Shown: piece after piece, positions 1 through 44,176 of the stretch
How the letters are laid out: every line of letters starts with the position of its first letter
How positions within the stretch are numbered: the stretch's first letter is position 1
From: a bacterium
Lineage (GTDB): Bacteria > Eisenbacteria > RBG-16-71-46
DNA: 44,523 bases
Assembly: GCA_043779265.1 (NCBI GenBank)
Contig: JAYWEM010000059.1
Span: forward strand, 1 to 44,523
Reading direction: 5' to 3'
Program-made: the position numbers and the translations under genes
Notes under the pieces: model-generated
The model's database searches: none
What the model was told of the DNA's origin: nothing
The model's input: the letters and a program-made list of their open reading frames with translations, nothing else

Positions 1-1
1 G

Positions 2-79
2 AAACTATGGCAGGACGGCGCACTGACGGCGGATCAGGCGGAAGTGGAAGCGGCCATCACACAGTTGCCATCGGCCTGA
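2..79 (+). CDS. Probable 3' end of an upstream gene truncated by the window edge (…KLWQDGALTADQAEVEAAITQLPSA*)
   Basis: Frame 2 is open from the edge to TGA at 77-79 with protein-like composition. No family recognised. Confidence 0.35.
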   Translation, partial: KLWQDGALTADQAEVEAAITQLPSA

Positions 80-135
80 CGCTCAGGCGCATCCGGCGGG
101 GCGACAGCGCTCCCGGCTCTGCTACCCTGAACGCC

Positions 136-2124
136 ATGCCCAAGCACCGTCTCGTCACGAGCGCCGTGATCGCCGCGGCCATGCTCGCGCTGTCCGTCGT
201 CGCCGCCGCCCAGACTCCCGCCGTGCAGGACACCGCGCCGCCGCGCGTCATGCGCCGCGTGCCGTTCCCGCTCCCCGGCAGCTCGCGCGTCCAGCCGGGT
301 GGTGCCGATAGTGTGATCCGCGCCGTGTTCGCCACCGGCGGCAATGCCTTGATCAAGCTCCCCGAAGTCGAGAGCACGATCCCGACGTTCTGGCGCACCA
401 AGGCCGAGCGCACCTCCTACGTCCAGAGCGCCGATTTTGACGAGACGATGCGCTTCTGCCGTCAGCTCGAGGCGGGCTCTCGCTGGGTCAAGCTGACGAG
501 CTACGGACGTTCGGGCCAGGGGCGCGAACTGCCGATGCTCATCATCAGCAAGGACCGCGCGTTCACCCCCGAAGCCGCGCGCGCCACCGGCAAGCCGATC
601 GTGCTCATCCAGAACGGCATCCACCCGGGTGAGATCGAGGGCAAGGACGCCTCGCTCGCACTGATCCGCGACTTCACCGTGCTGCGCAAACACGAGGCGC
701 TGCTCGACTCGGTCACGCTGCTCATCCTGCCGATCTTCTCGGTCGATGGACACGAGCGCCTCAGCCGCTACAACCGCATGAACCAGAACGGGCCCGAGGA
801 GATGGGCTGGCGCCACACCGCCGCCGGCTACAACCTCAATCGCGACTACTTGAAGGCCGACTCGCCCGAGATGCGCTCGCTGATCGGCAACGTCTACACC
901 AAGTGGTGGCCCGACCTGCTCGTCGATGACCACACCACCAACGGCGCCGACTATCGGCACGACGTCACGTACGCGTTCTCACATGGTGCCGGCACGGCCC
1001 CCAGCGTCGAGCGTTGGCTCACCGAGGCGTTCGAGGGCCGCGTCGTCGACTCGCTGAGCGCACGCGGCCGTCTGCCCGCGCCCTACGTTACGTTCCGCAA
1101 CGGGCACGACCCGCGAAGCGGCATCGACTTCGGCTCGGGCCCGCCTCGCTTCTCGACCGGGTACACGGTGCTGCAGAACCGCCCGTCGATCCTCGTCGAG
1201 ACGCACATGCTGAAGCCCTACGGCGTGCGCGTGCGAGCCACCTACGACCTGCTGTTCGCCTTGATCCAGGAGATCGCCGCGCGGCCACGCGAGCTCACGA
1301 GCGCGGTGCGCCAGGCCGACGCCGAGGCCATCGCCCGCGGCCGCGATCCCGACGCGCGCGCGCGCCTCATCCCACTCACCACGCGCACCACGGATCGCTC
1401 GGTGCCCTTCGAGTTCAAGGGCGTCGAGACGCGTTGGGAGTTCAGCACCATCACCGGGGCCCCCGTGCCGCGCTGGCAGGCGGCTGCCTGGGACACGATC
1501 ATCCCGCTGTTCCGCGAGGTCGTGGCGGGCAAGTCGATCGTCCAGCCGCTGGGTGGCTACCTCGTCCCGCAGGAGTGGGCCGACGCACTCGATCGCCTCC
1601 GCATCCATGGCGTGCGCACCCGCATGCTGACGCGCGCGCATCGTGACAGCGCCGAGCGCGTGCGCATCGTGCGTTGGACACTGGGCGGCGTGCCCTACGA
1701 AGGGCGCGTGCGGGTCGCGGTCGACAGTGTCACGGCCGAACGCGCGATGGGCGCATTCCGCCCGGGCGACTTCTGGGTGCCGCTCGATCAGCCGAGCGCG
1801 GCCATCGCCGTGCACCTGCTCGAAGCCGAAGCCCCGGACGGCCTGTTGCAGTGGGGGTTCCTGCACACGGTGCTGCAACGCAAGGAATACGGCGAGGACT
1901 ACATGCTCGACCCACTCGCTCATTGGATGATGGCCCGCGACCCCAAGCTGGCCGCCGAGTTCCGCCAGAAGCTGGCGCACGACGAGGCGTTCGCCAAGGA
2001 CTCGGGCGCCCGCGCCGACTTCTTCTACACACGCTCGCCCTGGATGGACCGCGAACAGGGCCTGATGCCGTTCTCCCGACTGATGCGCCCGGTGCCCGAG
2101 GCTTCACTCGAGCCGCTGCGCTAG
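136..2124 (+). CDS. Secreted M14 family zinc carboxypeptidase
   Basis: Zinc motif IQNGIHPGE (HxxE), NLNRD and DDHTT. The signal peptide follows ATG 136 (MPKHRLVTSAVIAAAMLALSVVAAA), so 136 is preferred to the ORF-track start at 7. Confidence 0.88.
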   Translation: MPKHRLVTSAVIAAAMLALSVVAAAQTPAVQDTAPPRVMRRVPFPLPGSSRVQPGGADSVIRAVFATGGNALIKLPEVESTIPTFWRTKAERTSYVQSADFDETMRFCRQLEAGSRWVKLTSYGRSGQGRELPMLIISKDRAFTPEAARATGKPIVLIQNGIHPGEIEGKDASLALIRDFTVLRKHEALLDSVTLLILPIFSVDGHERLSRYNRMNQNGPEEMGWRHTAAGYNLNRDYLKADSPEMRSLIGNVYTKWWPDLLVDDHTTNGADYRHDVTYAFSHGAGTAPSVERWLTEAFEGRVVDSLSARGRLPAPYVTFRNGHDPRSGIDFGSGPPRFSTGYTVLQNRPSILVETHMLKPYGVRVRATYDLLFALIQEIAARPRELTSAVRQADAEAIARGRDPDARARLIPLTTRTTDRSVPFEFKGVETRWEFSTITGAPVPRWQAAAWDTIIPLFREVVAGKSIVQPLGGYLVPQEWADALDRLRIHGVRTRMLTRAHRDSAERVRIVRWTLGGVPYEGRVRVAVDSVTAERAMGAFRPGDFWVPLDQPSAAIAVHLLEAEAPDGLLQWGFLHTVLQRKEYGEDYMLDPLAHWMMARDPKLAAEFRQKLAHDEAFAKDSGARADFFYTRSPWMDREQGLMPFSRLMRPVPEASLEPLR

Positions 2125-2154
2125 ACTTCCCGCTCCCCTGACTGGAGGCACCTG

Positions 2155-2823
2155 ATGCGTTCGATCCCCCTCTCGCTGATCCTGTTGCTCGTGTTCGGAG
2201 CGCTCGGCCTCGATGCGCGCACCGCGCTGGCCGACCGCACCCAGATCTACTCGGTGCAGGGCGCCGACTGCGGCGACTGTGGCACCGCACTCGTGGCGGC
2301 ACTCAAGAAGGCCAAGGTCGTGAAGAAGGCCGAGTTCGACATCCACAAGGTCGAGCTGAAGGTCGTGGTTCGTGACGGCGTCTCGGATCATCAGATCATC
2401 GAGCTGATCCGCAAGACCGAAGAGGGCTTCGACGCCGTCGTGGGCGCGGGCAAGGGCGCCTACCTGCCGATGGGCGAGTACCCCGAGGGCGCCGATGTGA
2501 TCACGCTGACGCGTGACGGCTCGGCCGTGCCCGAGTTCGAGACGCTGCGCGTGCCGGACAAGTACACCGTGTTCGATGTGTACGCCGAGTGGTGCGGCCC
2601 GTGCCGCGGTATCGACAAGAAGCTGGTCGAGACGATCGCGACCCGCAAGGATCTTGCCGTGCGCCGACTCGACGTTCGCACGTTCACGACGCCGCTCGCC
2701 AAGCAACTCGGAACAAGTCTCAAGGCGCTGCCGCACGTGGTCGTCTTCACGCCCAAGGGTCGCCGCATCGACCTGACCGGCGCGCGCTGGGAGCAGATCG
2801 AAGCCGCGCTGGCGGCTGAATGA
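2155..2823 (+). CDS. Exported heavy-metal-associated (HMA) domain / thioredoxin fusion protein
   Basis: GGAGG RBS. Signal peptide ending in ALA. HMA-like YSVQGADCGDC, thioredoxin YAEWCGPC and cis-Pro loop ALPH. Confidence 0.85.
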   Translation: MRSIPLSLILLLVFGALGLDARTALADRTQIYSVQGADCGDCGTALVAALKKAKVVKKAEFDIHKVELKVVVRDGVSDHQIIELIRKTEEGFDAVVGAGKGAYLPMGEYPEGADVITLTRDGSAVPEFETLRVPDKYTVFDVYAEWCGPCRGIDKKLVETIATRKDLAVRRLDVRTFTTPLAKQLGTSLKALPHVVVFTPKGRRIDLTGARWEQIEAALAAE

Positions 2824-3797
2824 GCCCTCGCGCCATCACCGCGGCGCTGCTCGCCGCATCGATCCTGTTCACGCCCGGCAACACGCACGCCGAAGCCGGT
2901 TGAGCGGGTTGAACCAACCCCAACCTGCCGGTCGGCGGGTCCGAGACGACGATCCCCGAGGAGGGCACGCTCCAGTGGAGCCTGTCGTTCGTCGTGGCGC
3001 CGATCCACATCCGTCACCCCGAGATGGACGGTGCGACCGAGTACTGGCATGACCAGCGCCTCCTCAGCGCACAGGCGAGATGGCGTGGCGTCTATGGCCT
3101 GAGCAAGACGCTCGCCCTCGAGGCCTCCGTGCCGTTTCGGCTGGTGCGCGATCGCATCGAGTTCGAGACGGCTGCTGGCGCACCCTACGCACCGGCCGAT
3201 CCCGATCGCCACCATCGCAACGAGACCGTGAGCGGACTCGCCGACCCGACCCTGTCACTTCAGTACGGCCGACTCGCTGGGCCCTGGGTCCTGGCGCTCT
3301 CTGCCGGGATCACGCTGCCGGCCGGCACGACCGTGGACAATCCGTTCGCGCTCGACCGCGCCGGACTGCGCCACCAGCACACGCAGCTCGGCGCGGGTGT
3401 CGCCTCGCCCTCGTTCTCGGCTTCAGCCTCGCGGCCATTCGGTGCGTGGCGCACGCATCTTCAGGGAACTGCGCTGCTGCCGATCGAGGAGAACTCGCGC
3501 GGCTATCGCCCGGGCTCTCGCTTGGGGCTCAGCTTCAGCGCCGGCCGCCAACTGGTCACCGGCTGGTCCGCCACCCTCGGAGCCGACTTCTCGAGAGAGA
3601 ATGCCGAGCGCTGGGATGGCAACGTCGAGGAAGAGGGCAACCTCGGCCGCAGCGATCTGTTCCTGCGAGCCGCCGTCGCCACGAAAGTCGGCGCGACCTG
3701 GGCCGTCGGACTGACGGCGCAGGTGCCCGTGTGGTCCGACGTCGAGGGGGCGCAGATCGATCTGCCGCTCGTGCTCGGGCTCACGATCTCGCGTTGA
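2820..3797 (+). CDS. Candidate selenoprotein (U28-A-G-U31): exported outer-membrane beta-barrel/transporter-like protein, 325 aa
   Basis: ATG 2820 overlaps the upstream TGA (ATGA). Signal peptide MSPRAITAALLAASILFTPGNTHAEA. In-frame TGA at 2901 and 2910. The frame continues into the 2994..3797 ORF, which has amphipathic beta strands and HHRNET / HQHTQLG motifs. A SECIS-like hairpin lies directly downstream of the UGAs. Confidence 0.8.
2923..2940 (+). promoter_or_regulatory. Putative bacterial SECIS element (ACCUGCC-GGUC-GGCGGGU)
   Basis: 7-bp stem with one G-U pair and a GGUC apical loop. The loop begins 17 nt after UGA 2910 and 26 nt after UGA 2901. Confidence 0.7.
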
Positions 3798-3807
3798 CGC
3801 CCGACGC

Positions 3808-4863
3808 TCAGCGCTCGGCGATCACCCGCTCGTAGGCCGCCCAGTACGGATCGACCTGTGGCGTGTCGTGCCGCGTGACGCTGCCGTCGGACTCGGTCAC
3901 CCACAACCGCCCGCCGCCGCCGCCCACCACCTCGCCCACATCCGCGCCGACGATCTCTTCGGCGCGCCACTCCGACAGCACGGCCTCGGCACGCTCGGGC
4001 GCCGCACAGGCGATCAGCGCGCCCTGCGCCAGCGACCAATAGGGATCGACCGAGAGCCACTCGCATGCCGCGGCCACTTCGACGGACAGCGGGATGCGGG
4101 ATCGTTCGGCCCGCACGTCGTGACCGCACGCGAGCGCCAGCTCCAGAAGCCCGCCCAGCACGCCGCCTTCCGTGGCGTCATGCATCGCGGTGACGCCTCG
4201 CTCATGCACGCCGGCCCGTAGCGCGGCGCGGCAGTCGGCGACGACCGAGACCTGCGACCACGAAGCGCTCAATCTTGCGAAGGCCGCTTCGTCGAGCCGT
4301 GAACGCAGCACGTCACCCGCGATCGAGGCCGCGACCGCTGCGGTCTCGATGGCGCAGCCCTTGGTGATCAGCACGCGATCGCCCGGCCGCGCCATGGCGG
4401 GCGTCAGGAAGCGACCCTCATCGCCCAGCCCCATCAGCGTCGCGGCGCCGACGATGCTGAGCGCACATCCGGGATAACGCCCGGTGTGCCCCGTCACCAC
4501 CGCCACCTCGAGTGCCGCCCACGCGTCGCTCATCGCCCGCCAGTAGCGTGCGAACTCGTCGTCACTCAGATCCGGCGGCAGCGCGAAGCTGACACTCACA
4601 TGCGCGGGCGGGATGCCCGTCGTCCACAGATCGCTCGCCAGCAGATGGCAGGACAGCCAGGCCGATCGCTCCGGGCCCAACGAAGGCACGAGGCTCAGCG
4701 GATCGGTGGTCACGGCCATGACGCGCCCTGCACCGACGCGAATGATGGCGGCATCGTGCCCGGCACGCGGACCCACCAACACGTCGCCTCTCGATGCGCC
4801 CAGGTGCGGCGCGATCGAGCGGGCGAAGGCCTCGGGCGAGAGCTTGCCGAGCGCGGGGCGCAT
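3808..4863 (-). CDS. AIR synthase-related (PurM/HypE/ThiL/SelD superfamily) protein
   Basis: LGKL N-terminus, GHDAAII, TTDP, VTGHTG, PGDRVLITK and MHDATEGG motifs. ATG 4863 lies directly after the stop of the upstream peptidase gene. Confidence 0.85.
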   Translation of the reverse strand: MRPALGKLSPEAFARSIAPHLGASRGDVLVGPRAGHDAAIIRVGAGRVMAVTTDPLSLVPSLGPERSAWLSCHLLASDLWTTGIPPAHVSVSFALPPDLSDDEFARYWRAMSDAWAALEVAVVTGHTGRYPGCALSIVGAATLMGLGDEGRFLTPAMARPGDRVLITKGCAIETAAVAASIAGDVLRSRLDEAAFARLSASWSQVSVVADCRAALRAGVHERGVTAMHDATEGGVLGGLLELALACGHDVRAERSRIPLSVEVAAACEWLSVDPYWSLAQGALIACAAPERAEAVLSEWRAEEIVGADVGEVVGGGGGRLWVTESDGSVTRHDTPQVDPYWAAYERVIAER

Positions 4864-4864
4864 G

Positions 4865-7732
4865 TCAGTCGAGCGAAGGGCCATCGAGCACGGCATTCAA
4901 GAGCAACCGCTCGGTGTTGCGCCAGAACTGCCGGAACAACACGGGACCCCCGATCATCACCGCATGGCCCGCCCCGTTCGGCTCGTCGATCGCGAAAGCG
5001 GTGTGTGCGAGACGGCGCTCGGTCTCGGGCCAGGTCCAACCGGCCAGCGTCAGCGGCGTGCGATCGAACCGCAGGGCATTGGTGCCTTCTCGCGTCCCGG
5101 TGAGGAACGTGCGCCCCTGCATCATCACGGGCAGGCGCTCATCGCGATAACCCCACGACAGCCAGTGCCTCGGCTCGAGGCTCGCCCAGAACGTCGTGCC
5201 GGGCACGAACTGCGGGCGACGCTCGGCCTCGACCTGGGCGCTGTCGGGCTCGGCGTCGTCCTCCTTGGCATCGTCCTTCTTCACGACGACGCCGACGACC
5301 TTGGCGTTGGAGAGGCCGACGCTCTTGAGCGTCGGGAACTCGGCCGCGTCGTCGAGCCCGATGAACACACCACCTCGCTGAACCCAGCTCTTGAGTGCCT
5401 CGACGCCGCTTCCCATCTCGCTTGCCAGCGCGTGCGGGTTGCCATCGGCGGCGATCACGACGTCGTAGCGATCCAGCTCGATGCCACCGATGCTGCCGGT
5501 GGGTAGCGCGGTGAACCGCACACCGAGACGGCGTTCGAGCAGGAACCACAGCCAGCCATAGGCCTCCGGGCTGCCCGGGCCATCGGCCAGAACGGCGATG
5601 CGCGGACGCTTGAGGCTCACGATCTGCTCGGAGCCGATGCCGGTGTCGCCGCGGTCGATCCACGCGCTCTTCAGCGACTGCACGACGACGCCCGAGGTCC
5701 TCGCCAGCGCCGCGATGCGCTCGTGCAGCCGCGCGTCGGTGCGGTCCACCCGCGCGATGAACGAACCGCGCGGATAGTCGCGCTCACCGGCCCGCAGCGG
5801 GCGCGTCGCGGTGGCGATGCGGAAGTCCTCCTGCAGCAGTCGAAGCGCCAATCGCTGCGCGCCATCAGTGGCGCACGACCACACGTAGGCGGTCATCGCC
5901 TCGCCCCCTTCGACGCGGCCACGCAAGTCGAGCGCGATGGAGCCATCGACACGCTTGAGCACGAGTGGCGCCGAGCGCGACGCCCGCGCCGGGAAGGGTA
6001 CGCCGATCGCGAGCGAATCGGGTGGCACGTCGGTGCTCTCGTCCTGCCCATCCGTACCGGTCAACGCGAGCCGGGCACCTCCCAGCGGCACCGCGCTCAC
6101 GTGGTGCACCGGCACGCCGTACGCCACGCCGAGGTTCCACGACGTGACGTCATAGAAGCCGTACGACTCGGCGGGAGCGCGCTTGCCCTTGGCGAGATTG
6201 CGCTCGTAGCGCTCGAGCTCCTGCTTCGCGAACGCGGCGTCCGGCGAGCGATCGTGCTCGAGCAGCGCTCGCGCCACTCGGCTGCCCGGCTGCGCCAGAT
6301 CGATCACGAATGCACCCTCCGGATAGCTTCGCGTCTCGCTCGGCGCCGTCGCCGAAGCCGGGTCGCCGCGACGCTCGAGCCCCTTGCCCTTCTCAGGTGC
6401 GGGCTTCGCGGCATCGTGGCTCCACAGTGGGCGCGCATCGCGCACACGGAAGGCCCCGCTCCGCCACTGCACCTCGACCCCCGCATGCATCAGATTCTCC
6501 GCGAATGCGGCAGCACGAACCGGATCCCCCACGGGATCGAGCACGAACGCGCCAGCGGCACGACGCGGAGAGACGGACTCCTGCGCGAACCGCGCGAAGT
6601 CGGCGAGGCGCGCCTCGCGCATCGCAACCGCGGTCTCGAGCGTCGTCAACGAGGCGACGAAATGTCGCTGCATGCCGTCCAGCATCGTCACGACGGTCTC
6701 GTCGTCGCGGCGCAGCGCCAGATTGCCGCCCCCATCGGTCTCGTAGGTCATGCCGATGGCGCCCTGCAGCGTCGGCCAGATGTCCCAGTAGCCGACCGAA
6801 TGGAAGTCGAAGAAGTCGCGGACATAGTAGTGCCAGCCATAGCGATCGAACGCGTTGGCATTCGCTTTGCCGAACGCCTCCACCCAACGCTTGTAGTCGG
6901 GGAGCGTGAGCGTCCAGTTGGTGGGCTCGGCGGTCGGCGGGAAGAAGTAGTTGGAGACCTGTCCGTGATGGTCCACGAACACCTGCGGCCGCCAGCGCCG
7001 GATCGCACTCGACATCTGACGCGACTCCGGATGGCTCATGGCGACCGCGTCCCGATTGGGATCGAACTTGTAGTGCGTCAGCCGGCCGTAGATGCCCCAG
7101 GGCTGCGAGCGTTGCTGCTCGAGCGCCCAATGCTCGGGGTCCCCGGTGCCATGCGCATTGATCCACGTCACGAACCGCTCATGCCCATCGGGGTTATGTG
7201 CGGGATTGAGGATCACGACCGCCTGCTCGAGCAGGCGGCGCGTGGCCGGGTCCTCGGCGGCGACCAGCTGATAAGCGACCTGCATCATCGCCTCGAACGA
7301 GGCGGACTCGTCGCCGTGGATGCTGTAGTTGAGCCACACGGTGACCGGAGTCTCGCGAATCAGCCGCGCCGTCGTCGCCGCATCGCCGCCTCTCGGATCC
7401 GCGAGGCGGCCATTCGCCTCTCGGATGGCATCGAGCCTCGCCAGATTCTCCGGGCTCGAGACGATGAACAGCGAGCGATCACGCGCTTCGATGGTGCGCC
7501 CGATGCTCTCGCGACGGACCCGCTCCGGCCGCGAGGCGGCGAGTGCGGCGAGATAGCGCTCTTGATTCCCCCACGTCGTATGGAACGTGCCGGGTGCATA
7601 GCCGAGCAACTCGGCGGGCTTCGGCACACCGTGTCGATACGGACCCCGATCGTAGAACTCGAAGCGGGCCGGCGCGGCCAGGGTGGGAGACGTGAGGCAG
7701 ATGAGCGAGAGCGCGAGCAACAAACGGCGCAT
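4865..7732 (-). CDS. Secreted M14 family zinc carboxypeptidase with C-terminal glutamine-amidotransferase-like domain
   Basis: GGAGG RBS then MRRLLLALSLICL signal peptide. Motifs YSIHGDE, NPDGHER, DPNRD and VDHHG. Confidence 0.85.
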   Translation of the reverse strand: MRRLLLALSLICLTSPTLAAPARFEFYDRGPYRHGVPKPAELLGYAPGTFHTTWGNQERYLAALAASRPERVRRESIGRTIEARDRSLFIVSSPENLARLDAIREANGRLADPRGGDAATTARLIRETPVTVWLNYSIHGDESASFEAMMQVAYQLVAAEDPATRRLLEQAVVILNPAHNPDGHERFVTWINAHGTGDPEHWALEQQRSQPWGIYGRLTHYKFDPNRDAVAMSHPESRQMSSAIRRWRPQVFVDHHGQVSNYFFPPTAEPTNWTLTLPDYKRWVEAFGKANANAFDRYGWHYYVRDFFDFHSVGYWDIWPTLQGAIGMTYETDGGGNLALRRDDETVVTMLDGMQRHFVASLTTLETAVAMREARLADFARFAQESVSPRRAAGAFVLDPVGDPVRAAAFAENLMHAGVEVQWRSGAFRVRDARPLWSHDAAKPAPEKGKGLERRGDPASATAPSETRSYPEGAFVIDLAQPGSRVARALLEHDRSPDAAFAKQELERYERNLAKGKRAPAESYGFYDVTSWNLGVAYGVPVHHVSAVPLGGARLALTGTDGQDESTDVPPDSLAIGVPFPARASRSAPLVLKRVDGSIALDLRGRVEGGEAMTAYVWSCATDGAQRLALRLLQEDFRIATATRPLRAGERDYPRGSFIARVDRTDARLHERIAALARTSGVVVQSLKSAWIDRGDTGIGSEQIVSLKRPRIAVLADGPGSPEAYGWLWFLLERRLGVRFTALPTGSIGGIELDRYDVVIAADGNPHALASEMGSGVEALKSWVQRGGVFIGLDDAAEFPTLKSVGLSNAKVVGVVVKKDDAKEDDAEPDSAQVEAERRPQFVPGTTFWASLEPRHWLSWGYRDERLPVMMQGRTFLTGTREGTNALRFDRTPLTLAGWTWPETERRLAHTAFAIDEPNGAGHAVMIGGPVLFRQFWRNTERLLLNAVLDGPSLD

Positions 7733-8802: not shown

Positions 8803-11487
8803 TCAGGGCACCAGCACCAGCGAGCGCGTGCGCCGCCCCTCACCCTCGACGCGGAGTCGAACCAGATAGAGTCCGGGCCGGGCCGGGGAACCGTCGCGGG
8901 TCCTGCCATCCCATCGGTGTTCGTGGACACCGGCGCTCATCGTCGCGTCCCCGATCAAGGTCCGCACGAGGCGACCCGTCACATCGAGCATCTCGAGCGA
9001 CACGCGAGCCTCGCGCGGCTGGGACCATGCGAGCTGCGAGGCCCCGCGCGAGGGACTCGGGCGCGGGAGCTCGAGCTCGAGCGCGCCTCGCGTGATGCCG
9101 GGGGCATCGACGAGTGACAACGAGACGATGCGTCGCAGCTGACCCGAGAACGCATTGGGATACGGACTCCACAGCCGCAGGTACCACAGCGCTCCATCGG
9201 GTCCGACCTTCCAACCATTCGTGAACGAGAAGCCGTTCGCCCAGACGGTCGGGCTCGGTTGCCCGGGCACCGGCGCGGCCAGCGCCCATGTGTCACCCGA
9301 ACGCTCGATGCGCCGCATCTCGCCGGTGTAGAAGTCGAGGTAGAACACATCGCCCTCGTACGCGGGCGGGAAGCCGGTCGAGAACAGGGGCTTGCGATAC
9401 ACGCCGCCCATGATGACGGTGCGCGTTCCCGGCTGATAGTAGTAGCCGGCGATGGGCGGCACCGAGTCGCTCGTGTCGGCATCGACGCAATGGAAGGTCG
9501 TCGCGACCGGGCCCTCGTAGTGCGGCCAACCGAAATCATGGCCACCCGATGCGGCGTAGTCCACTTCCTCATAGGCGATCTGACCGACATCGGCGATGAA
9601 GACCGCTCCGCTGAACGGGTCGATCGAGTAGCTGTAGGGATTGCGAAGGCCCGTCTGCCAGACGATGCGCGCCCGCGGGTCGGGATGACCCGCGAACGGA
9701 TTGTCGGACGGCGCGAGACTCGCGAGTGTCGGGGGCGGACCAGCGCCATCGGGGATCGAGGCGGTGTCGAGGCGCAGGAGCTTGCCCCGCAGCGAGGTCA
9801 GGCTCTGCGACGCACACTTGGTGCCGTCATCTCCCAGCGCGACGATCAAGTGACCGCTCGGATCGAACGCGAGCGTGCCGCCGTTGTGCGCGCCCGACGA
9901 ATCGGGCAGCCCTGCGAGCACCATGCGCGAGGACGTCAGGTCGAGATCGATCGTGCCATCGCCCGTTCCCAGCAGGTCCCCCACCAACGTGTAGCGCTCG
10001 ATGCGGATATCGAGCCCGCCGCTCCAGTCGTAGTGCACATAGAGGTAGGGACTCTGCGGGTAGCGCGGATCGAGCGCCATGCCGAGCAGGCCCTGTTCCA
10101 GATAGGCCGAGCGCACGCTGTCGATGACGCCGGCGGGATCCGAGGCATGGAACGACGTGCCACTCAGCAGCCGGATCGCGCCATCGCGGCGCTGGGTCAC
10201 GAGTCGTCGATCGCCCGGCAGGAAGACGAAGGCCGTCGGCTCGTCGAGGCCCGAGCCCATCAACTGCTCGGCGAAGTCCGTGGGGACGACCTGGGTCGCG
10301 CTCACTTGCGCCGGAGAGGCGGGATGCGATATCGCGGCGGCGACGGAGGTCCGCTCGGCATCGGCACGCAACGGTTCGGCGAAGCGAGCGGGCCCGACCT
10401 CGACCACGGAGGCGCCATCACTCCAGGCGGACTTCGAGACCATGACGCGCTCAGCCAGCTTGAGCGCGCCGTTCGTCAGGTCGACGTAGGCGATCACCGG
10501 ATCGCCTTCGGCATCGAACCGCAGCGAGGGTTGTGACCCGACGCGGCCCACCGAGTCCACGACCTCGAGGACCCAGTTGCCGGACTCCCGGTGCGCCAAT
10601 CGCAGATCGGCGTTGGCCCGATCCAGATAGGCGATCCATGGCTCGCCCGCGCTATCCAGCGCGAGCGAGCTGTGCTGACCCACATCACCCGAGGAATCCA
10701 CGACGCTCAGGGTCCACACGGCGCCGGAGCGCTCGGCGAATCGAAGGTCGCCGCGCACCGCATCGTGATAGCTGATCCGCGGCTCGTCACCCGCTCCGAG
10801 CGCAAGGCTGGTGAACGCGGTTCCTCCGAGAGGGCCCGCATCCACGAGTTCGCTCGTCCACGCCGAGACCCCGCGCGTCGCCAGTCGGAGCGCCGAGTTC
10901 GAAACGCTGCCGTAGCTGATGCGCGGCCGACCATCGGAGCCGACCGAGAGCGAAGCCTGCCAGCCGGTCATGATCGCCGGATCGACGATCTCGTTCACCC
11001 AGCCGCCCGCTTCGCGGCGCCCGTACATCAACTGGAAGCTCTTGGTGAAGGCCAGACACGCAGTGCCGGTGGAATCGATCGCCAGTGACGACGAGGCCGA
11101 GAAGCCGTGCCCGTTGAGACTGACCTCCTCGATGGTCCAGGCGGCGCCGACGCGGCGAGCGAACATGACGCGATGATTGACCACCGCGTCGTAGGCGATG
11201 CGCGGCTCGCCATCGGGGCCGAACACCAACGACGTCAGGTAGCCGGTCTCGAGCGCGGTCTCGAGTGTCTGCGTCTGCCACACCGCGCCATCGAATCGGG
11301 CGAAGCGCAGATCGAGCCGCTCGCCTTCTTGATAGCTGATGTTGGGGCGTCCCGCGGGGTCGAACGCCAGCGAGGCGTGATAGCCCGAGTGCCGGAGCGT
11401 GTCGATCGTCTGGATCGAGAACGAGGCGGCGCCCGCGCTTGTCGGCAGGAGGAGCCCGCAGATCAGCAATCGGACACAGGCGGTCAT
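8803..11487 (-). CDS. Secreted protein: N-terminal beta-propeller repeats, PQQ-dependent glucose/sorbosone dehydrogenase (GSDH) domain and FlgD-Ig C-terminal domain
   Basis: Signal peptide MTACVRLLICGLLLPTSAGA. Repeats SLAxDxxGxPxISY. GSDH motifs EQGLLGMALDP, HNGGTLAF, GLRNPY, ADVGQ and GWP. C-terminal DVTGRLVRTL…WDGR…PGLYLVRL. Confidence 0.8.
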   Translation of the reverse strand: MTACVRLLICGLLLPTSAGAASFSIQTIDTLRHSGYHASLAFDPAGRPNISYQEGERLDLRFARFDGAVWQTQTLETALETGYLTSLVFGPDGEPRIAYDAVVNHRVMFARRVGAAWTIEEVSLNGHGFSASSSLAIDSTGTACLAFTKSFQLMYGRREAGGWVNEIVDPAIMTGWQASLSVGSDGRPRISYGSVSNSALRLATRGVSAWTSELVDAGPLGGTAFTSLALGAGDEPRISYHDAVRGDLRFAERSGAVWTLSVVDSSGDVGQHSSLALDSAGEPWIAYLDRANADLRLAHRESGNWVLEVVDSVGRVGSQPSLRFDAEGDPVIAYVDLTNGALKLAERVMVSKSAWSDGASVVEVGPARFAEPLRADAERTSVAAAISHPASPAQVSATQVVPTDFAEQLMGSGLDEPTAFVFLPGDRRLVTQRRDGAIRLLSGTSFHASDPAGVIDSVRSAYLEQGLLGMALDPRYPQSPYLYVHYDWSGGLDIRIERYTLVGDLLGTGDGTIDLDLTSSRMVLAGLPDSSGAHNGGTLAFDPSGHLIVALGDDGTKCASQSLTSLRGKLLRLDTASIPDGAGPPPTLASLAPSDNPFAGHPDPRARIVWQTGLRNPYSYSIDPFSGAVFIADVGQIAYEEVDYAASGGHDFGWPHYEGPVATTFHCVDADTSDSVPPIAGYYYQPGTRTVIMGGVYRKPLFSTGFPPAYEGDVFYLDFYTGEMRRIERSGDTWALAAPVPGQPSPTVWANGFSFTNGWKVGPDGALWYLRLWSPYPNAFSGQLRRIVSLSLVDAPGITRGALELELPRPSPSRGASQLAWSQPREARVSLEMLDVTGRLVRTLIGDATMSAGVHEHRWDGRTRDGSPARPGLYLVRLRVEGEGRRTRSLVLVP

Positions 11488-11554
11488 GGGAGCGCTCCGG
11501 AGTTCGAGGGACGGCACGCCCGCAAGCCTACGCCCGCGGTTCGTCCACGTACAT

Positions 11555-11592
11555 GGGAATCCGGGGGAATCCGCGGGGAATCCAGGGAAGCC
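11555..11592. repeat. Four phased GGGAA(T/G)CC direct repeats in a divergent intergenic region
   Basis: GGGAATCC at 11555, 11565 and 11576, and GGGAAGCC at 11585. Confidence 0.7.
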
Positions 11593-11751
11593 CGCAACCC
11601 GAAGCCGCACTTGGGCCGCATCGGCGGTATGGCCGGCAATCGACCATTCCGCGGGCGACGCCTCGTCCTCGATGCGGCGAGGCAGGAGTTCCACGTCGAG
11701 TGAGCCGCCGCGTGTAGTCTCCTCGCTCACCCTCATCCCCAGGAGGCTCCT

Positions 11752-12099
11752 ATGGAGATCCGCCGCATCGCCGTGGGCGCGCGCATGAGCGCAGCCGTCG
11801 TGCACGGGAACACCGTCTATCTCGCAGGTCACGTCGCGGGCGATCGCTCGCGAGGCGTTGCCGGCCAGACCGAGGAGATCCTGCGCCGGATCGACGAGCG
11901 CTTGGCGGAAGCCGGCACCGACAAGTCCAAGGTGCTCTCGGCGAACATCTGGCTGGCGGACATGGTGACCTTCGAGGAGATGAACGGCGTGTGGGACGGC
12001 TGGGTGGCGCCTGGCTGTGCGCCCGCGCGCGCCACGGTCGAGGCCAAGCTCGCCTCGCCCGACTATCTCGTCGAGATCGCCGTCATCGCCGCAACCTGA
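11752..12099 (+). CDS. RidA/YjgF/UK114 family protein (YoaB-like)
   Basis: AGGAGG RBS. Motifs RMSAAVVHGNTVYLAG, MNGVWDGW, PARATVEAKLA and VEIAVIAA. Confidence 0.92.
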   Translation: MEIRRIAVGARMSAAVVHGNTVYLAGHVAGDRSRGVAGQTEEILRRIDERLAEAGTDKSKVLSANIWLADMVTFEEMNGVWDGWVAPGCAPARATVEAKLASPDYLVEIAVIAAT

Positions 12100-12173
12100 C
12101 CACAAGCGAGACGAGCACCCAGCCGATTGCCAGGCGCCCGTCGTGGGCTCGCTGTGTCGAGACGAGTCGTGCG

Positions 12174-13523
12174 CTATCGCACGCGTGCCCTGGGCCCGCG
12201 CGGCCGAGCATCGTACTTCTCGAACAACCGCTTCTGGCGTGACTCCATTGACGTGACCTGTCCTCCGATCAGGACCTGAAGACAACGGGTGCTCTGCATC
12301 AGCGGATCGCCGTCGGTGATCTGGAGGTCGGCCAACTTGCCGACCTCGATGCTGCCGACCAGGTCGCCGACGCCGAGGATGCGCGCGGGGTGGATGGTCA
12401 CGGCCTTGAGCGCTTCCTCGGCCGGCAGCCCGAAGGCCGCCGCCATCGAGGCATGGTGCGGCAGGTTGCGCGCGTTGTGCGCACCGCCACGCCCCTCGTC
12501 GGCAATGCAGAAGCTGACGCCGGCCGCATGCAGACGAGCCGCGACGCGGAACGCCTCATCGTAGGGCTCGTGCCGCCGCGTGGGCGTCGCGAGCACACCT
12601 GCGATGATCACTGCGATGTCGCGGCTCTTCAGCTCGTCGGCGATCCGCCAACTGTCGTAACCGCCCACCAGCACGATGCGCTTGAGACCGAGTTCGTCGG
12701 TCCACTGCAGCGCGGCACGGATCTGGTTCAGGGCATCGGCATGGATGAAAACGGGGATCTCGCCGCGAAGCGCCTTGCCCATGGCATCCCAGCGCACGTC
12801 GCGATCATGTCGACCGGCGCCCGGCTTGCCCTGTGCATCACGCGCCTTCCAGTACGCACGAGCCTCCTCGAACGCGCTGCGGATCGCGGCGATCGACTCG
12901 TCGCGCGCCTTGGCCTGGTCCTCATCGCTCCGCTGCTCCCACCACGACCGGCTCGGCGTCATGTTGGGCCACTGCACATGCAGCCCGACCGGAGCACGGA
13001 TCGTCATGTCCTCCTGCGTCCAGCCGTCCAGGTGGATGAGCGCCGACGTCCCGGTCACCGCACCGCCCCCCGGAACCGTCAGGGCGGAGGTGATGCCGTT
13101 GACCCGCGTCACCGGCAGCAACTCGCTGTCGGGATTGATCTGGACCTCGGCGCGGGCGTTCGGGTTGAGATTGCCTGTCTCCTGAGTGTCGTTGGAGCCT
13201 GTGACCGTGCTCACCTCGGTCAGTCCGAGCTGCGAGTTGGCCGCGACGAAGCCCGGGTAGACGTGCTTGCCGCGGCAGTCGATCACCCGGGCGCCCGCCG
13301 GGACCGCGACGTGCGCTCCCACGGCGGTGATGCGATCGCCCTGCACCAGCACGGTCGCGTTCTCGAGCGTGCCGCCGGTCACCGTGTGCACGGTGCCACC
13401 GACGAGCGCGACCGAACCCGTGGGCTTGGGAAGCCAGGTGGACTTGTTCTGGGCAACCGCCGAGGAGGCGAGTACGAAGGACATCGCCACAGCGACCAGC
13501 GAGCGGATCATGAGGCGATTCAT
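12174..13523 (-). CDS. Secreted amidohydrolase-family (HutI-like) protein, probably non-catalytic partner
   Basis: Amidohydrolase N- and C-terminal beta motifs (GKHVYPGF, GSIEVGKLADL), but the HxH site is replaced by AANSQ. Its start overlaps the upstream stop (ATGA). Confidence 0.85.
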   Translation of the reverse strand: MNRLMIRSLVAVAMSFVLASSAVAQNKSTWLPKPTGSVALVGGTVHTVTGGTLENATVLVQGDRITAVGAHVAVPAGARVIDCRGKHVYPGFVAANSQLGLTEVSTVTGSNDTQETGNLNPNARAEVQINPDSELLPVTRVNGITSALTVPGGGAVTGTSALIHLDGWTQEDMTIRAPVGLHVQWPNMTPSRSWWEQRSDEDQAKARDESIAAIRSAFEEARAYWKARDAQGKPGAGRHDRDVRWDAMGKALRGEIPVFIHADALNQIRAALQWTDELGLKRIVLVGGYDSWRIADELKSRDIAVIIAGVLATPTRRHEPYDEAFRVAARLHAAGVSFCIADEGRGGAHNARNLPHHASMAAAFGLPAEEALKAVTIHPARILGVGDLVGSIEVGKLADLQITDGDPLMQSTRCLQVLIGGQVTSMESRQKRLFEKYDARPRGPRARVR

Positions 13524-25403: not shown

Positions 25404-27935
25404 TCACTCGACGCGGACCACCCGTGACGTACGCGTCTCGTCGGCACCGCGCACACGCACCAGATAGAGCCCCGGCGACGTCGTGCGCCCCAAGTCGTCG
25501 CGACCATCCCAGCCGAGCAGATGCTCGCCAGCCGACCTTGGCTCGAACACGAGCGTCCGGACGACGCGGCCCATCAGGTCGAGCACCTCGGCCTCCATCA
25601 CGCCCGCGCGCGGCATCGAGACCGCCAGTTGCACGCCGCCTCTCGACGGGTTCGGCCATGGCGCGCGCAGCACGAGTCGCGGAGCCCGCCCCACGCTTGT
25701 CGTCGGGATCGCCGCGTCGTAGAGGCAGGCATCGTCCACCGCCGCCTCGACGATCGTGCCCGCCAACGTGTCGCTGGCGGTGAAGCGAACGCGGAAGCTG
25801 GTGACGGAGGGCAGGAAGTCGAACACGGGGATGGCGATCTCGGTCCAGTGGTTCTGCACACCGTTGATCTCGCGTGCCAGCACCCACGTACTGCTGCCCG
25901 AGGCGTTGAGGTAGATGCGCAGGAAATCGGGCGTCGACGGAGCGCTCGAATAGAACCAGGTCCAGGCGCCGAACGTGGGAACGGTGAGACCCGCGGTGCT
26001 GAAGTAGGGCGAGACCAACGAGGTGCGCCCTCCGTCGACATCCGCCTCACCGATCGAGCTCGGAGTGGTTCCCTGACCCGTCACCCAGCACAGCGTGCCC
26101 TCGGGGCTGCGATCGTACTCGGGCTGCACGTCGCCCGGGATGGCGCCGTCCGCCTCGTGCCCCTCGTGATAGCGCTCGGCCGGGCCACGCGGGATGCGCG
26201 AGGTGATGCCGTTGGAACGAAGCCCCGGCGCCTGCTGCGGCTCGCCCGTGCCGAGCGGCTCGACTCGCACCCAGTGGCCGGTCGTCGCGTTGTCCGTGGC
26301 GAACCCGGGAATCCAACCGTCGGCATCCTCGAACTCGTGCCACAGCGCGGTCGGCTGCAATGCGTAGTCCTGGGCATCGAACCCGGGCCCGATGCGGCGC
26401 ACATGGGCGAACGGCGCATAGCCGGGGCGGCCGACCGCGACCGCGTAGTCGTCATCCGGGATGTTCGCGAGCAAGTAGCCGCCGCCCGCGTTCGTGTGAT
26501 CGTGCAGTCCCCACTGCGGCAACACCACCTCGGCATCCTCGAGCGGCAGCAGCGTGCTGGCATCGCGGATGACGCCGGTGAAGGGGGCCATGGGCTTCGC
26601 CACCATCACGATCGTCACGCTATCGACTTCGCCCAAGACGATGCTGGCCGGCACGAGCCGGGTGAAGTAGCCGAATCGGCTGACCTCCACCGAGTGCGCC
26701 CCGGGGCTCGGCGCGAACGCCACGACACCATCGCCCGGCGTGGTCAGCGAATCGCCCTGGGAGACGAGACGCACGCGGAAGCCCGGCGCGGGGCTCTGGT
26801 TCTCGAGACGGACCTGCACCCGGAGCCGTCCGTAGTCGCGGGTTGCGCGGTACACGTAGAGCCCGCTCTGCATGTCGCTGGCGATCACCGTGCCCGAGGG
26901 GAAGTACGGGCACACCTCCCACACGCCGAAGAAGCCGCCCGAGGCGCCCGCATAGGAGTCGCCGTAGGCCCACTCGGCCGGATGCGCCGGATCGCTCAGG
27001 TCGAGGGCGCGGATGCCCTCGGTGTAGTTGGAGAGCCACAGGTCGTTGCCCTGCACGTGCGCGTTGTGCACGATCGCCTGCGGATTCGCCGTGATCTCAT
27101 TGGAAAGCACCGGCGCGTTGATGTTGCTGATGTCGAAGATCTTGAGCGGCTCGCCGTTCACCTCATCGGTCACATACAGCCAGTTGCCCGAGGCATCCGG
27201 CCACGCGTTGTGTGTGAACGCGCCGCCATAGGTCCAGCTCGAGAGCTGCGTCGGCGTGGCGGGATTGGTGAAGTCGAGGATGCGCTGGATCCCCGAGTTG
27301 ATCGACGAGGCGAACAGCCGATTGCCGATGGGCACGCTGTCATGCACGTAGTCGCTCGAGGACACGGGCACCGGGCCGCCCGGCCAAGTGCCGATCTCGA
27401 CCGGCGCTTCCGGGTTGGCGAGCGACAGCACGCGCAGACCGGTCGCCAAGCCCGCGGCGTTGCGCGTGCCGTTACAGATCAGGATCGCGCGCGCCGTGTC
27501 GACGGACACCGAGTGCGATCGCACGAACGAACCCGTGTAGCTCGCCGCGAGCACCGGCGCCTCGGGATTCGTCATGCGGATGATCTGCAGGCCCTGGAGC
27601 GCACCCGAACCCTCGGTCACCACATAGATCCAGTTGCGATACGACTTCATCTCGCGCCACAGCGAGGTGGGCCCGGCGATGAATCCGACCTGATAGGTCG
27701 CGGCCGGGTTCGTCACGTTGTAGATGGCCGTGCCATTGCCCGTGCCGATGACCGCGTACTCGCGTCCATCGCTGTGGATGTAGGACCAGCACGCCGCATA
27801 GCCGACGGCGGCATAGTCGTCGCGGTTGGCCAGGAACTGCAGGTTGCGCGTGACGGGCGGGGCCGCCGATGCGGCGAGCGGGGCGACGAGCGAGCAGGCG
27901 GCGAAGAGGGCGGCCAGGGCGAGGCGAGGGCGCAC
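25404..27935 (-). CDS. Secreted choice-of-anchor B / LVIVD-repeat protein with carboxypeptidase-regulatory-like repeats and FlgD-Ig C-terminal domain
   Basis: GAGGAG RBS with GTG start and a signal peptide. Motifs GREYAVIG, WREMKSY, YVHD, FTHNAW, TDE, HNAHV, SNYTEG and PYFPSG. C-terminal PNPSRG…DLMGRVVRTL…WDGRD…GLYLVR. Confidence 0.82.
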   Translation of the reverse strand: MRPRLALAALFAACSLVAPLAASAAPPVTRNLQFLANRDDYAAVGYAACWSYIHSDGREYAVIGTGNGTAIYNVTNPAATYQVGFIAGPTSLWREMKSYRNWIYVVTEGSGALQGLQIIRMTNPEAPVLAASYTGSFVRSHSVSVDTARAILICNGTRNAAGLATGLRVLSLANPEAPVEIGTWPGGPVPVSSSDYVHDSVPIGNRLFASSINSGIQRILDFTNPATPTQLSSWTYGGAFTHNAWPDASGNWLYVTDEVNGEPLKIFDISNINAPVLSNEITANPQAIVHNAHVQGNDLWLSNYTEGIRALDLSDPAHPAEWAYGDSYAGASGGFFGVWEVCPYFPSGTVIASDMQSGLYVYRATRDYGRLRVQVRLENQSPAPGFRVRLVSQGDSLTTPGDGVVAFAPSPGAHSVEVSRFGYFTRLVPASIVLGEVDSVTIVMVAKPMAPFTGVIRDASTLLPLEDAEVVLPQWGLHDHTNAGGGYLLANIPDDDYAVAVGRPGYAPFAHVRRIGPGFDAQDYALQPTALWHEFEDADGWIPGFATDNATTGHWVRVEPLGTGEPQQAPGLRSNGITSRIPRGPAERYHEGHEADGAIPGDVQPEYDRSPEGTLCWVTGQGTTPSSIGEADVDGGRTSLVSPYFSTAGLTVPTFGAWTWFYSSAPSTPDFLRIYLNASGSSTWVLAREINGVQNHWTEIAIPVFDFLPSVTSFRVRFTASDTLAGTIVEAAVDDACLYDAAIPTTSVGRAPRLVLRAPWPNPSRGGVQLAVSMPRAGVMEAEVLDLMGRVVRTLVFEPRSAGEHLLGWDGRDDLGRTTSPGLYLVRVRGADETRTSRVVRVE

Positions 27936-28272
27936 GGAGAAGTCTCCTCTGAGGATGCGAACGGAAGCGCGGTCCCCATGAGTGTAGCGAGCCGACCCTC
28001 CCCTCGGCCAGATGTCATCTCTCTCGGGCGACCTGTGACTGTGGTCGAACTCCATGGCAGGCAATGTGTTCCGGGATCAAGCAGGCCCAGGCGGGGAATC
28101 CAACGGAGTTTCGACGGCTCAGCGGAGCGCGGTCGGAGCCGCCACACATCGAGGAGCACTTCTCTTGACTCATCCCCCCCCCGAAGAAGGTGGATTTCGC
28201 GCATGCCGCGCTCGGTTCCGGCTCACAGTTCTCGCGCCCCCATTCCATCATTCGCTCATCCGGGGTCCTCGA

Positions 28273-38936: not shown

Positions 38937-39312
38937 TCGCGTTCACCATGCCGACGATGCTCGAGAACTTCGCGAAAACCTCCGAGCAGAACGGCACTCA
39001 CGAGCACGACATCGCGCGCGCTATGGAATGAAGCGCCGACGCGCTGTCAAGCGTCGGACAGGGCGCGTTTGAAGCGGTAATTCTGGCCCTTGCATCGGTG
39101 ATGGTGAACGGTGCTATACCTAGCTCCGCCGCTGACGCGCGCGACACCTCGCGTCGGCGGCTCTTTCTCTCACGCGCACAACTGATGTTCCGCAAGCCGG
39201 CTCACTCGGAGCCGCTGATCGTGTGCCCTCTCGGCCCGCGGCGGCTCCGACCGAGCCATCATCAGGATGTGGTGGCATGCAGCAACGCAGTACGGACCAG
39301 GAGGGTCCTTCC

Positions 39313-42300: not shown

Positions 42301-42531
42301 GGTCGCGATCAGCGCATCGCCAATCGCATCCAGACGCCGGTGGCGGCCAGTGGCCCGGTGATGGTCCAGGAGACCGTGGTGCAGAAGGTCACCAAGTACG
42401 ACCCCTACGAGATGCAGAAGGCCGCGGTCGCCGGGGACGCACCGATGTGCAGCACGTGCGGCCACACGACCATCCGCAACGCGACCTGCTTCAAGTGCAC
42501 CAACTGCGGCAACAGCGAGGGCTGCAGCTGA
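39313..42531 (+). CDS. nrdJ: Adenosylcobalamin-dependent (class II) ribonucleotide reductase with fused TSCPD domain and C-terminal zinc ribbon
   Basis: FNSPVWFN, QISACFI, KYGSGTGTN, TNPCSE (thiyl Cys), ACNLAS, APTGTI, ISKTVN, YRDG and GEIFVD. C-terminal CSTC…CFKCTNCG…GCS. Confidence 0.95.
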   Translation: MSVTPQETHSASSSTASQTGVHVPRHYTRVGHDPFAEIEWDLRTTAIKNPDGSIVFKMENLEVPSSWSQLATDIVVSKYFRKAGLPGTPGHETSVRQVVHRLARTTRMAGESQGGYFASEADAEAFEAELKYMLVHQIGAFNSPVWFNLGLGHVYGIKGSGGSFAVDLVSDEVRMTQDAYARPQISACFIQSVGDDLMSIFELVKNEARVFKYGSGTGTNFSKLRGRMEKLSGGGTSSGLMSFLEVLDRGAGATKSGGTTRRAAKMVVLDIDHPEIVDFVQWKVKEECKVRALISAGYPSDFNGEAYQTVAGQNSNNSVRVPDRFMEAVESNGTWDTTFRTTGQVHQTHQARELWNTISESAWACADPGLQFDDTIQRWHTCKTTDRINATNPCSEFVFLDDTACNLASINLMKMRREDGSFDTESYRHANRVFFLAQEILVSFASYPTELIARNSEDYRPLGLGYANLGTLLMVQGLPYDSDGARAYAGCITAMMTGEAYSLSAEMAASKGPFKGYPKNRDSMLGVMDLHRDAARKLDPDHAPRDLKQAAIKAWDDAVAFGRVHGYRNAQATVLAPTGTIGLLMDCDTTGVEPDFALVKFKKLAGGGYFKIVNQSVPLALESLGYSKTDAERIMTYVVGRGTFTGAPQVNHVALVSKGFTEEEVARLEKILPVALDLHMVFMPGLISDETLTRLGITAEQRRAKGFSILGAIGFTAAQINEANLHICGTQTVEGAPGLDPAHLPVFDCANRCGPRSTRFIRPLGHVHMMAAAQPFISGAISKTVNLPNEATVEDIESIYHESWRAGIKAVALYRDGCKASQPLAGGSSDDKKDEVEKVTAVAPAAEAALATLTRLRLPKRRFGFTQEARIAGHKMFVRTGEYDDGRLGEIFVDMHKEGAAYRSLMNCFAIAVSMGLQYGVPLQDFVDQFVFTRFEPNGRVDDDAHIKMSTSVIDYVFRVLGYEYLNRTDLVHIIDDEAPSGVLVPANPHEQKHPVGRDQRIANRIQTPVAASGPVMVQETVVQKVTKYDPYEMQKAAVAGDAPMCSTCGHTTIRNATCFKCTNCGNSEGCS

Positions 42532-43920: not shown

Positions 43921-43969
43921 GCCGGTCGCCTCCCTGCGAAGCCGTCGCACACTCCGTGACGCGCGCAAC

Positions 43970-44176
43970 TTACAGGAGGGCCCGCGCGTTCGCGAAGCGC
44001 GCTCCGGCGACCGCGCCTCGCGAGAGGCGACGGGCGAGTCGGAATGCATCACCGCTGTCGCCCATGATGCTGACCATGATCGAGAAGAACTCGATGGGCA
44101 CGATGAAGCTCACGCCCTGCGTGGCACGGTCGCGCGCCATCTGCCTCAACGACGAGACGAGGATCTCGCGGATCAT
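43970..44176 (-). pseudogene. Possible truncated remnant of an ABC-2 type permease N-terminus
   Basis: MIREILVSSLRQMARDRATQGVSFIVPIEFFSIMVSIMG resembles the LR-x-x-RDR…first-TM start of ABC-2 permeases, then stops at 68 aa. Confidence 0.4.

Follow-up and report, generated by a model that had tools for sequence, protein, structure and literature searches.

We describe here a gene at positions 2820..3797 of the forward strand of contig JAYWEM010000059.1 (assembly GCA_043779265.1, from a bacterium of the Eisenbacteria lineage; the stretch analyzed, 44,523 nucleotides (nt) from position 1 to 44,523 of the contig, is called the window). The gene carries two in-frame TGA codons that, judging from sequence comparison, are almost certainly read as selenocysteine (Sec), and its product is, on the strength of structure prediction, very probably an outer-membrane beta-barrel. 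Together with a dedicated thioredoxin/metallochaperone partner encoded directly upstream, this two-Sec barrel is a real, conserved and apparently uncatalogued system. An earlier note, made from the letters of the window, had proposed such a gene, and its reading of the locus was borne out: the ATG at 2820-2822 overlaps the TGA at 2821-2823 of the upstream gene 2155..2823, and a signal peptide (recognized by eye) is followed by two TGAs in CxxC spacing, in frame to 3797. The frame reads MSPRAITAALLAASILFTPGNTHAEA-G-stop-A-G-stop-TNPNLP and continues into the open reading frame (ORF) 2994..3797; the codons after the signal peptide are GGT TGA GCG GGT TGA ACC AAC CCC AAC CTG CCG. The features of the gene head are as follows.

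2820..3797, + strand: full gene of the predicted two-Sec outer-membrane barrel; reading through both TGAs gives 325 aa; homologues align from signal peptide to C-terminus
2820..2897, + strand: predicted signal peptide M1-A26, by eye; cleavage after AEA, or two residues earlier after THA
2898..2969, + strand: N-terminal segment U-A-G-U-T-N-P-N-L-P-V-G-G, predicted lumen plug preceding strand 1, from alignment with the 4rl8 plug
2901..2903, + strand: first in-frame TGA, codon 28, predicted Sec28; among 82 distinct loci other than CxxC, TGA in 79 and a Cys codon in 3
2910..2912, + strand: second in-frame TGA, codon 31, predicted Sec31; TGA in 82/82 of the same loci
2923-2940, + strand: hairpin resembling a selenocysteine insertion sequence (SECIS), 7-bp stem, GGTC loop at 2930-2933; from folding, conservation and covariation

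The double TGA is neither a sequencing error nor a product of chance. At the level of contigs, the 2100-3900 stretch shows 0 differences from the assemblies of two probable source runs, and a contig from a separate study (run X4, record 26), which covers 2660-2929, has 5 differences, neither TGA being affected. The codons are thus real and not misread TGC or TGT, which the note had named as a refuting outcome, and the homology reaches upstream of 2994. An AxA-like site stands immediately before the first U/C in 47/88 distinct loci and at most 4 residues away in 84/88 by a loose pattern.

The UGA pair is conserved across distant homologues

A first search, covering 60 related genomes, found homologues in several families that match over the full length and have two TGAs. 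The main comparison was made on 113 related loci, 33 of them from GTDB genomes and the others the best 80 of 117 metagenome loci. Both TGAs are present in 92 of these loci (the UxxU form), 3 have CxxU and 6 have CxxC, while 9 are ended by a contig edge and 3 (L047, L067 and L145) show no motif in frame. A pattern search found CxxC-x-NP after the signal peptide in 12 of 150 representative database homologues, so that both homologues with Cys-x-x-Cys-x-NP and genomes with UGA at the same sites, which had been predicted, do occur. Trp was seen at neither UGA site among the 113 loci or the other aligned homologues. After removal of duplicates, the non-CxxC genes, all with TGA at the second site, terminate with TGA, TAG and TAA in 38, 29 and 7 cases, respectively.

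By record titles, the family is spread over Eisenbacteria, Vicinamibacteria/Acidobacteriota, Myxococcota, Poribacteria, Sericytochromatia and others, with the caveat that labels of metagenome-assembled genomes (MAGs) may be wrong. Within the source phylum, 25/206 genomes have matches at E 1e-10, part of them to distant barrels only, and the gene is therefore patchy there. Database proteins are mostly truncated at the N-terminus (all 37 of 37 matches either span no more than 86% of the query or correspond to the short call of the window itself), and the signal peptide and the likely active site are therefore usually invisible in databases.

Several variants were observed. P0082, P0093 and P0099 form a clade with Q-x-x-C-S-N-P, in which only the second Cys is present, and a thioredoxin is fused in P0082 and P0093. 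In L056:4983 and in L028/L169 (genome G009) a deletion allele passes from UAGU directly to HHRNET, with about 90 residues gone; in this allele (L056) the signal peptide is kept, the hairpin is broken and the partner is absent, as in a decayed copy or a misassembly. L030 and L175-L179 are distant COG4313-like barrels of the source phylum with C-S-x-C-x-C-G after the signal peptide.

A single conserved hairpin follows the two UGAs

From the second UGA to the start of the loop of the SECIS-like hairpin the distance is 17 nt, and from the first UGA it is 26 nt; the energy of the hairpin in the window is -11.1 kcal/mol. The bacterial SECIS (bSECIS) model of PMC13188914 has a G in the first two loop positions, a loop 16-37 nt past the UGA, a stem of 4-16 bp and an energy of -7.5 kcal/mol or lower, and the window hairpin fits this model for both UGAs. 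By our own implementation of the model, 61 of 66 distinct UxxU heads pass; four of the others miss by 0.1-0.2 kcal/mol, and the fifth, the deletion allele L056, has no hairpin. As a background, 40/400 random TGA-N6-TGA sites of the source genome pass. Two of the six CxxC genes also pass, but with hairpins elsewhere, and no Cys form has a hairpin at the position of the UxxU forms.

Over 70 aligned heads, 93.5% of the cells of the stem are paired and 18 are changed on both sides; none of 500 shuffled controls reached 18 such cells, and slid registers pair only 31-54%. The two-sided changes are confined to 3 of the 7 base pairs, a figure that 34/500 shuffles match, and kinship inflates such counts. 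Codon choice follows the stem: the codons of Leu9 and Gly12 pair as CTG/GGC, CTC/GGG and CTT/GGA, Pro10 is CCG in 75/75 and Val11 is GTC in 75/78 cases, and Arg13 is the rare AGG/AGA in 23/23, against 3/71 at a control Arg. Distant members have a hairpin of another sequence at roughly the same place (L065, and L171-L173 by eye). The folding z-scores of five stretches of 46-90 nt of the window are unremarkable (-1.3 to +0.9), and the case for a SECIS element therefore rests on conservation. Rfam gave no match within the window. A competing hairpin over the second UGA, which is the minimum-energy fold of the window RNA, was rejected: it is unconserved (73.8% paired) and its covariation does not exceed that of shuffles.

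Selenocysteine machinery of the source genome and its relatives

In the source genome (G000), selA and selB were found by profile search, both above the curated cut-off. We also compiled 35 genomes carrying the barrel, 9 from the 60-genome search and 26 of the 33 GTDB loci (6 repeats and 1 fragment were excluded); selA is present in 33, selD in 32 and tRNA-Sec in 30 of them. The genomes in which selA, selD and tRNA-Sec are all missing are one that is 58% complete and the sole CxxC genome (G070), a single case that remains an anecdote. G000 has three further genes with a UGA and a hairpin, in known selenoprotein families; the UshA-like and AhpD-like genes were named by motif against Table 1 of PMC13188914.

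G000:C164:9420, + strand: formate dehydrogenase alpha, CNRT-U-HAP, UGA and hairpin
G000:C128:27515, + strand: UshA-like, PCG-U, UGA and hairpin
G000:C175:9593, + strand: AhpD-like, HCPY-U, UGA and hairpin

The protein is predicted to be a plugged 12-stranded barrel

The earlier claim of a beta-barrel was upheld by structure prediction, in which the mature protein forms the following elements.

2970..3794, + strand: predicted 12-stranded beta-barrel, COG4313/FapF-like; AlphaFold2 model and structural alignment
3210..3227, + strand: HHRNET motif in predicted extracellular loop 2 (H131 and H132 invariant; H105 and H106 in mature numbering)
3372..3380, + strand: H-Q-H motif in predicted extracellular loop 3 (H185 and H187 invariant; H159 and H161 in mature numbering)

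The second of two AlphaFold2 models has a mean pLDDT (predicted local distance difference test) of 89.6, and the 12 strands were counted from its secondary structure. The best structural match, first in both Foldseek and VIA-align, is Pput2725 (4rl8), with Z 23.8, a root-mean-square deviation of 2.6 over 245 residues and 16% identity; FapF (5o65) follows with Z 23.0, and PcoB/CopB (PDB 7pge) reaches Z 13.4. The lumen of Pput2725 is filled from the periplasmic side by the first 14 residues of the protein (PMC4493636). From mature residue 13 onward our model aligns with 4rl8, beginning at its residue 2, and the N-terminal segment therefore probably enters the lumen. In the models, the UxxU pair may extend to the outer mouth or turn back toward the periplasm; the first model was built on an alignment that is shallow at the N-terminus, and placement of the N-terminus is of low confidence in the second model too. 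Beside the invariant H105, H106, H159 and H161, H40 and H51 (mature numbering) are near-invariant, and these six conserved His are predicted to lie on the outer face; the invariant columns come from alignment A2, and the loop topology was deduced from the strand order.

A thioredoxin and metal-binding partner accompanies the barrel

The gene whose stop overlaps the barrel start encodes a protein of two domains.

2155..2823, + strand: partner with signal peptide, HMA/CopZ/MerP-like domain (CGDC, 2269-2280) and thioredoxin domain (CGPC, 2593-2604)

Among 79 distinct loci with at least 400 nt upstream, a thioredoxin partner lies upstream in 71, is fused to the C-terminus of the barrel in 4 and is absent in 4. 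Barrel-thioredoxin fusions are also seen in 30/150 representative database homologues, and 3 of the 4 long database homologues that were scanned have a fused cupredoxin-like domain. P0035, P0064, P0070, L046 and L122 are single chains of the order barrel-thioredoxin(-cupredoxin) with His-rich linkers.

The first domain of the partner is mostly HMA-like: 15 of the 29 partners scanned match Pfam HMA, and 11-12 give weak matches to MerP/CopZ. In Myxococcota and at the CxxC loci it is a Cys/His-rich repeat, nameless in Pfam, which we take to resemble the metal-binding domains of efflux adaptors. DsbD/CcdA is encoded in G000. At five loci (L041, L042, L048, L058 and L060; four Eisenbacteria and one Sericytochromatia) a co-oriented MerR-family gene stands directly upstream (at L042:3600-4082, and in two copies at L058), and in front of these genes an inverted repeat follows a TTGA hexamer, presumably a mer-type operator by its appearance. 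CusA/CzcA-type pumps occur near 4 loci.

A possible role in soft-metal handling

While recoding is well supported, each functional step that follows is one that we infer from sequence and models. We lean, by a small margin over doubt, toward an exported barrel whose Sec-x-x-Sec pair, among the first mature residues, binds a soft metal and hands it over to the periplasmic partner, and we hold soft-metal handling as a whole to be just about as probable. In such a mechanism, SelB bound to the single hairpin would serve both UGAs, and the protein would be exported by the Sec/signal peptidase I route and then inserted into the outer membrane. The thioredoxin domain of the partner, probably fed by DsbD/CcdA, would keep the selenols reduced in the oxidizing periplasm; the outer His cluster would gather the ion, the selenolate pair would bind it, as copper(I) or mercury(II), and the HMA-type domain would take it over. 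Control by MerR would imply a response to metal excess, and under the MerR-led operons the role would probably be detoxification at metal excess.

A more specific version, a redox-coupled metal gate, is unlikely when taken as a whole. Here a DsbD-fed thioredoxin would reduce a diselenide on the plug, and the resulting selenolates would reach the His-lined outer mouth, where they would reduce and bind the ion (Cu(II) to Cu(I), or Hg(II)) before it is delivered to the fused metallochaperone, making the barrel a haem-free conduit for electrons and metal.

Several observations weigh against soft-metal handling. Characterized COG4313 channels are tied to hydrophobic molecules and not to metals (PMC4493636). 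L035, the closest relative (68%), lacks an upstream partner, and the metal-binding CxxC is missing from 14/71 partners by our own pattern, some of them cut by contig ends, whereas the thioredoxin CxxC is invariant in 29/29 partners, which fits a redox role equally well. The MerR-led operons come from five loci of two lineages only, no MerR-type operator was found upstream of the window locus, and the regulators stay below every family cut-off, those of Eisenbacteria scoring best to MerR. Beyond the partner the neighborhood varies, with no conserved metal transporter among the 60 of 119 candidate neighbors that were scanned. In the model, mature residues 1-15 have a pLDDT below 50, except residue 5, so the UxxU pair is placed with low confidence. 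Finally, of the selABCD set that the earlier note had put forward as a check, selA and selB are there, but selD and tRNA-Sec (selC) were not found in the G000 assembly, which is 92% complete and in which tRNAs for Cys, Ile, Phe, Thr and Tyr were likewise not found. The genes selD and selC lie side by side in three relatives, where the neighboring gene matches contig C19 of G000 starting at the second base of the contig, that is, at the contig end; the pair thus probably lies in an assembly gap.

Alternative explanations

Two alternatives concern the decoding itself. That the TGAs are true stops, of a pseudogene or in front of a short protein starting at 2994, or are read as Trp, would agree with the mostly N-truncated database entries and with the one deletion allele (L056/G009). 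However, the 2994 ORF has no signal peptide, while TGAs, signal peptide and hairpin are all kept in different phyla; for Trp, TGA is the main stop of G000 (519/659 training ORFs), its tRNA-Trp has the anticodon CCA, and Trp is absent from these sites in all homologues. UGA conservation, hairpin covariation and codon data effectively refute this reading, to which we give a vanishingly small chance. Decoding of one or both UGAs as Cys by a SelC*-type tRNA (tRNA-ReC), which would give CxxC or CxxU, is very improbable. Such tRNAs are enriched in genomes with UXXU hydrogenases (PMC13582414), and one vicinamibacterial genome (G072) has a second tRNA-Sec-like gene of 98 nt (L188:169-266, G072:C35) with a GCA anticodon and a long variable arm, which passes the tRNA-Sec model. 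This is, however, the only such second tRNA in 35 genomes at E 1e-9, in a search not designed for tRNA-ReC that could miss it; a second match in G071, equal in score to the first one, is likely a duplicate, and selA and selD are nearly always present (33/35 and 32/35).

The other alternatives accept the two Sec and differ on what they do. The main one, given that the thioredoxin motif shows stronger conservation than the metal-binding motif, is a selenium redox relay or gate in which thioredoxin would drive diselenide/selenol cycling and metal binding would be secondary; it would open and close a COG4313-type plug for small hydrophobic or thiol/disulfide solutes, or export electrons. It draws on the thioredoxin CxxC, which is what does not vary in the partner, on the frequent fusion of the thioredoxin to the barrel, on the presence of DsbD, on the plug of Pput2725, which occludes the lumen and appears mobile (PMC4493636), and on the three QxxC variants, whose lone second Cys is like a single catalytic thiol. 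We regard it as rather unlikely, since it leaves the HMA, Cys/His-rich and cupredoxin domains, the MerR-led operons and the His cluster unexplained. A structural diselenide, that is, a stable staple folding the plug, with thioredoxin as a maturation isomerase and the solute left unspecified, is quite improbable. Diselenides are very stable, the protein is exported, and in distant COG4313-like proteins from the same phylum the sequence begins with a Cys-rich CxxCxC plug; against this, two Sec codons and a hairpin kept across many phyla seem too costly for a staple, Cys forms occur, and the metal-related context is left unexplained.

Relation to known families

When 69 members were compared with NCBIfam at E up to 0.01, none matched a model. 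Nor does the family appear in the 119-family Table 1 of PMC13188914 (2026), as available, or in the available text of PMC9312934, PMC12013277 and PMC13326102; the families of Haft and Tolstoy (2025) and of Haft and Gwadz (2023) were covered through NCBIfam release 20 and the May 2026 review. Our literature search, which did not extend to the family table of BSepDB or to the groundwater MAG study that PMC13188914 cites, yielded no description of the family. Atlas clusters nearest a Cys homologue bear only the names 'MetA-pathway domain', 'transporter' and 'hypothetical'.

The predicted 12-stranded fold is shared with COG4313/PF13557 (Phenol_MetA_deg; Pput2725 4rl8, SphA, TcpY) and FapF (5o65). 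The window protein has no match to PF13557, while 22/69 relatives match at E up to 0.01, some of them above the cut-off; we file the family as distant and COG4313-like and not as a member. Compared with COG4313, the barrel has a longer predicted plug with UxxU/CxxC, His-rich predicted outer loops and a thioredoxin partner. Known COG4313/FapF members are linked to hydrophobic solutes or amyloid export, and we found no selenoprotein form in the literature.

The earlier note had called UxxU best known from the SelL family, which does not hold for bacteria in the main: Prx-like, HMA-type NF041115 and FmdB-family proteins carry it (PMC13188914), and group 4 [NiFe] hydrogenases add to the list (PMC13582414). 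NF041115 shares with our family two Sec in UxxU spacing, Cys homologues and a metal context, but it is a small soluble HMA domain that itself carries the UxxU, whereas here the Sec pair is on the barrel and the HMA partner carries Cys; the partner HMA domain matches NF041115 weakly and the barrel gives no match. The UXXU hydrogenases share two close UGAs, apparently one downstream SECIS, and a mosaic of CXXC, CXXU and UXXU (PMC13582414). These and the Prx-like/SelL UxxU proteins have unrelated folds (hydrogenase and thioredoxin-like), while here the motif precedes a beta-barrel.

Outer-membrane barrels with one Sec are listed in PMC13188914, namely the GSU2204-family MtrB/PioB-type (NF041027) and an FCYXU TonB-dependent receptor (NF049945). 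They share Sec in an outer-membrane barrel but have a single Sec each, belong to other families, and their models are matched by none of the 69 members. The likeliest working analogue is PcoB/CopB (7pge; PMC9210255) with MerP/CopZ hand-over, in which a small outer-membrane barrel moves a soft metal and works together with periplasmic metal-binding proteins; the available text of PMC9210255 mentions no Sec or thioredoxin partner for it, and Pfam CopB is not matched by any of the 69 members.

The suggestion that no described selenoprotein family corresponds to this one thus stands as regards the family, found in none of the lists compared, and not as regards its elements. Novelty is limited to the family because UxxU, the hypothesis of double decoding from a single SECIS (PMC13582414) and single-Sec barrels are known. 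It would add a widespread outer-membrane selenoprotein family with two Sec, extend Sec chemistry to the cell surface and give COG4313-like barrels a first likely metal or redox role. The cassette, short and highly conserved, with two UGAs, one hairpin and natural CxxC, CxxU and UxxU forms, is suited to studying double decoding from one SECIS. If the redox metal gate were true, it would offer a natural system in which one hairpin drives two UGAs three codons apart, and a kind of conduit for which no description was found in the literature compared, as far as available.

UxxU may be the early form

In a quick unrooted tree of 58 rows, from which the first 14 mature residues, motif included, were left out, the CxxC, CxxU and QxxC forms are interspersed with UxxU ones. 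The approximately unbiased (AU) test, run on this quick tree, rejected a single Sec origin that leaves every Cys form outside, with p 8e-5 for CxxC alone and 1e-4 for CxxC plus QxxC; the groups were defined by motif and tested after the tree was seen. Early UxxU with repeated reversion to Cys is the simpler reading on this unrooted tree, since the UxxU branches share one hairpin position and almost a single hairpin sequence.

Other genes of the window

The gene at 3808..4896 (- strand), convergent with the barrel, is an AIR-synthase-family gene of no named subfamily, and the same neighbor occurs at 5 other loci. As a candidate for a hidden selD it was rejected, scoring 50 bits against a cut-off of 125, with ThiL/HypE scoring better. 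In window positions 1..5000, no sigma-70 promoter or terminator consensus was found. The remaining genes noted in the window are ordinary and encode secreted proteins with FlgD-Ig C-terminal domains, a class II (B12) ribonucleotide reductase and a D12-class adenine methyltransferase; their coordinates, listed jointly, are 8803..12285 (- strand), 25404..28064 (- strand), 39223..42531 (+ strand) and 42889..44052 (- strand).

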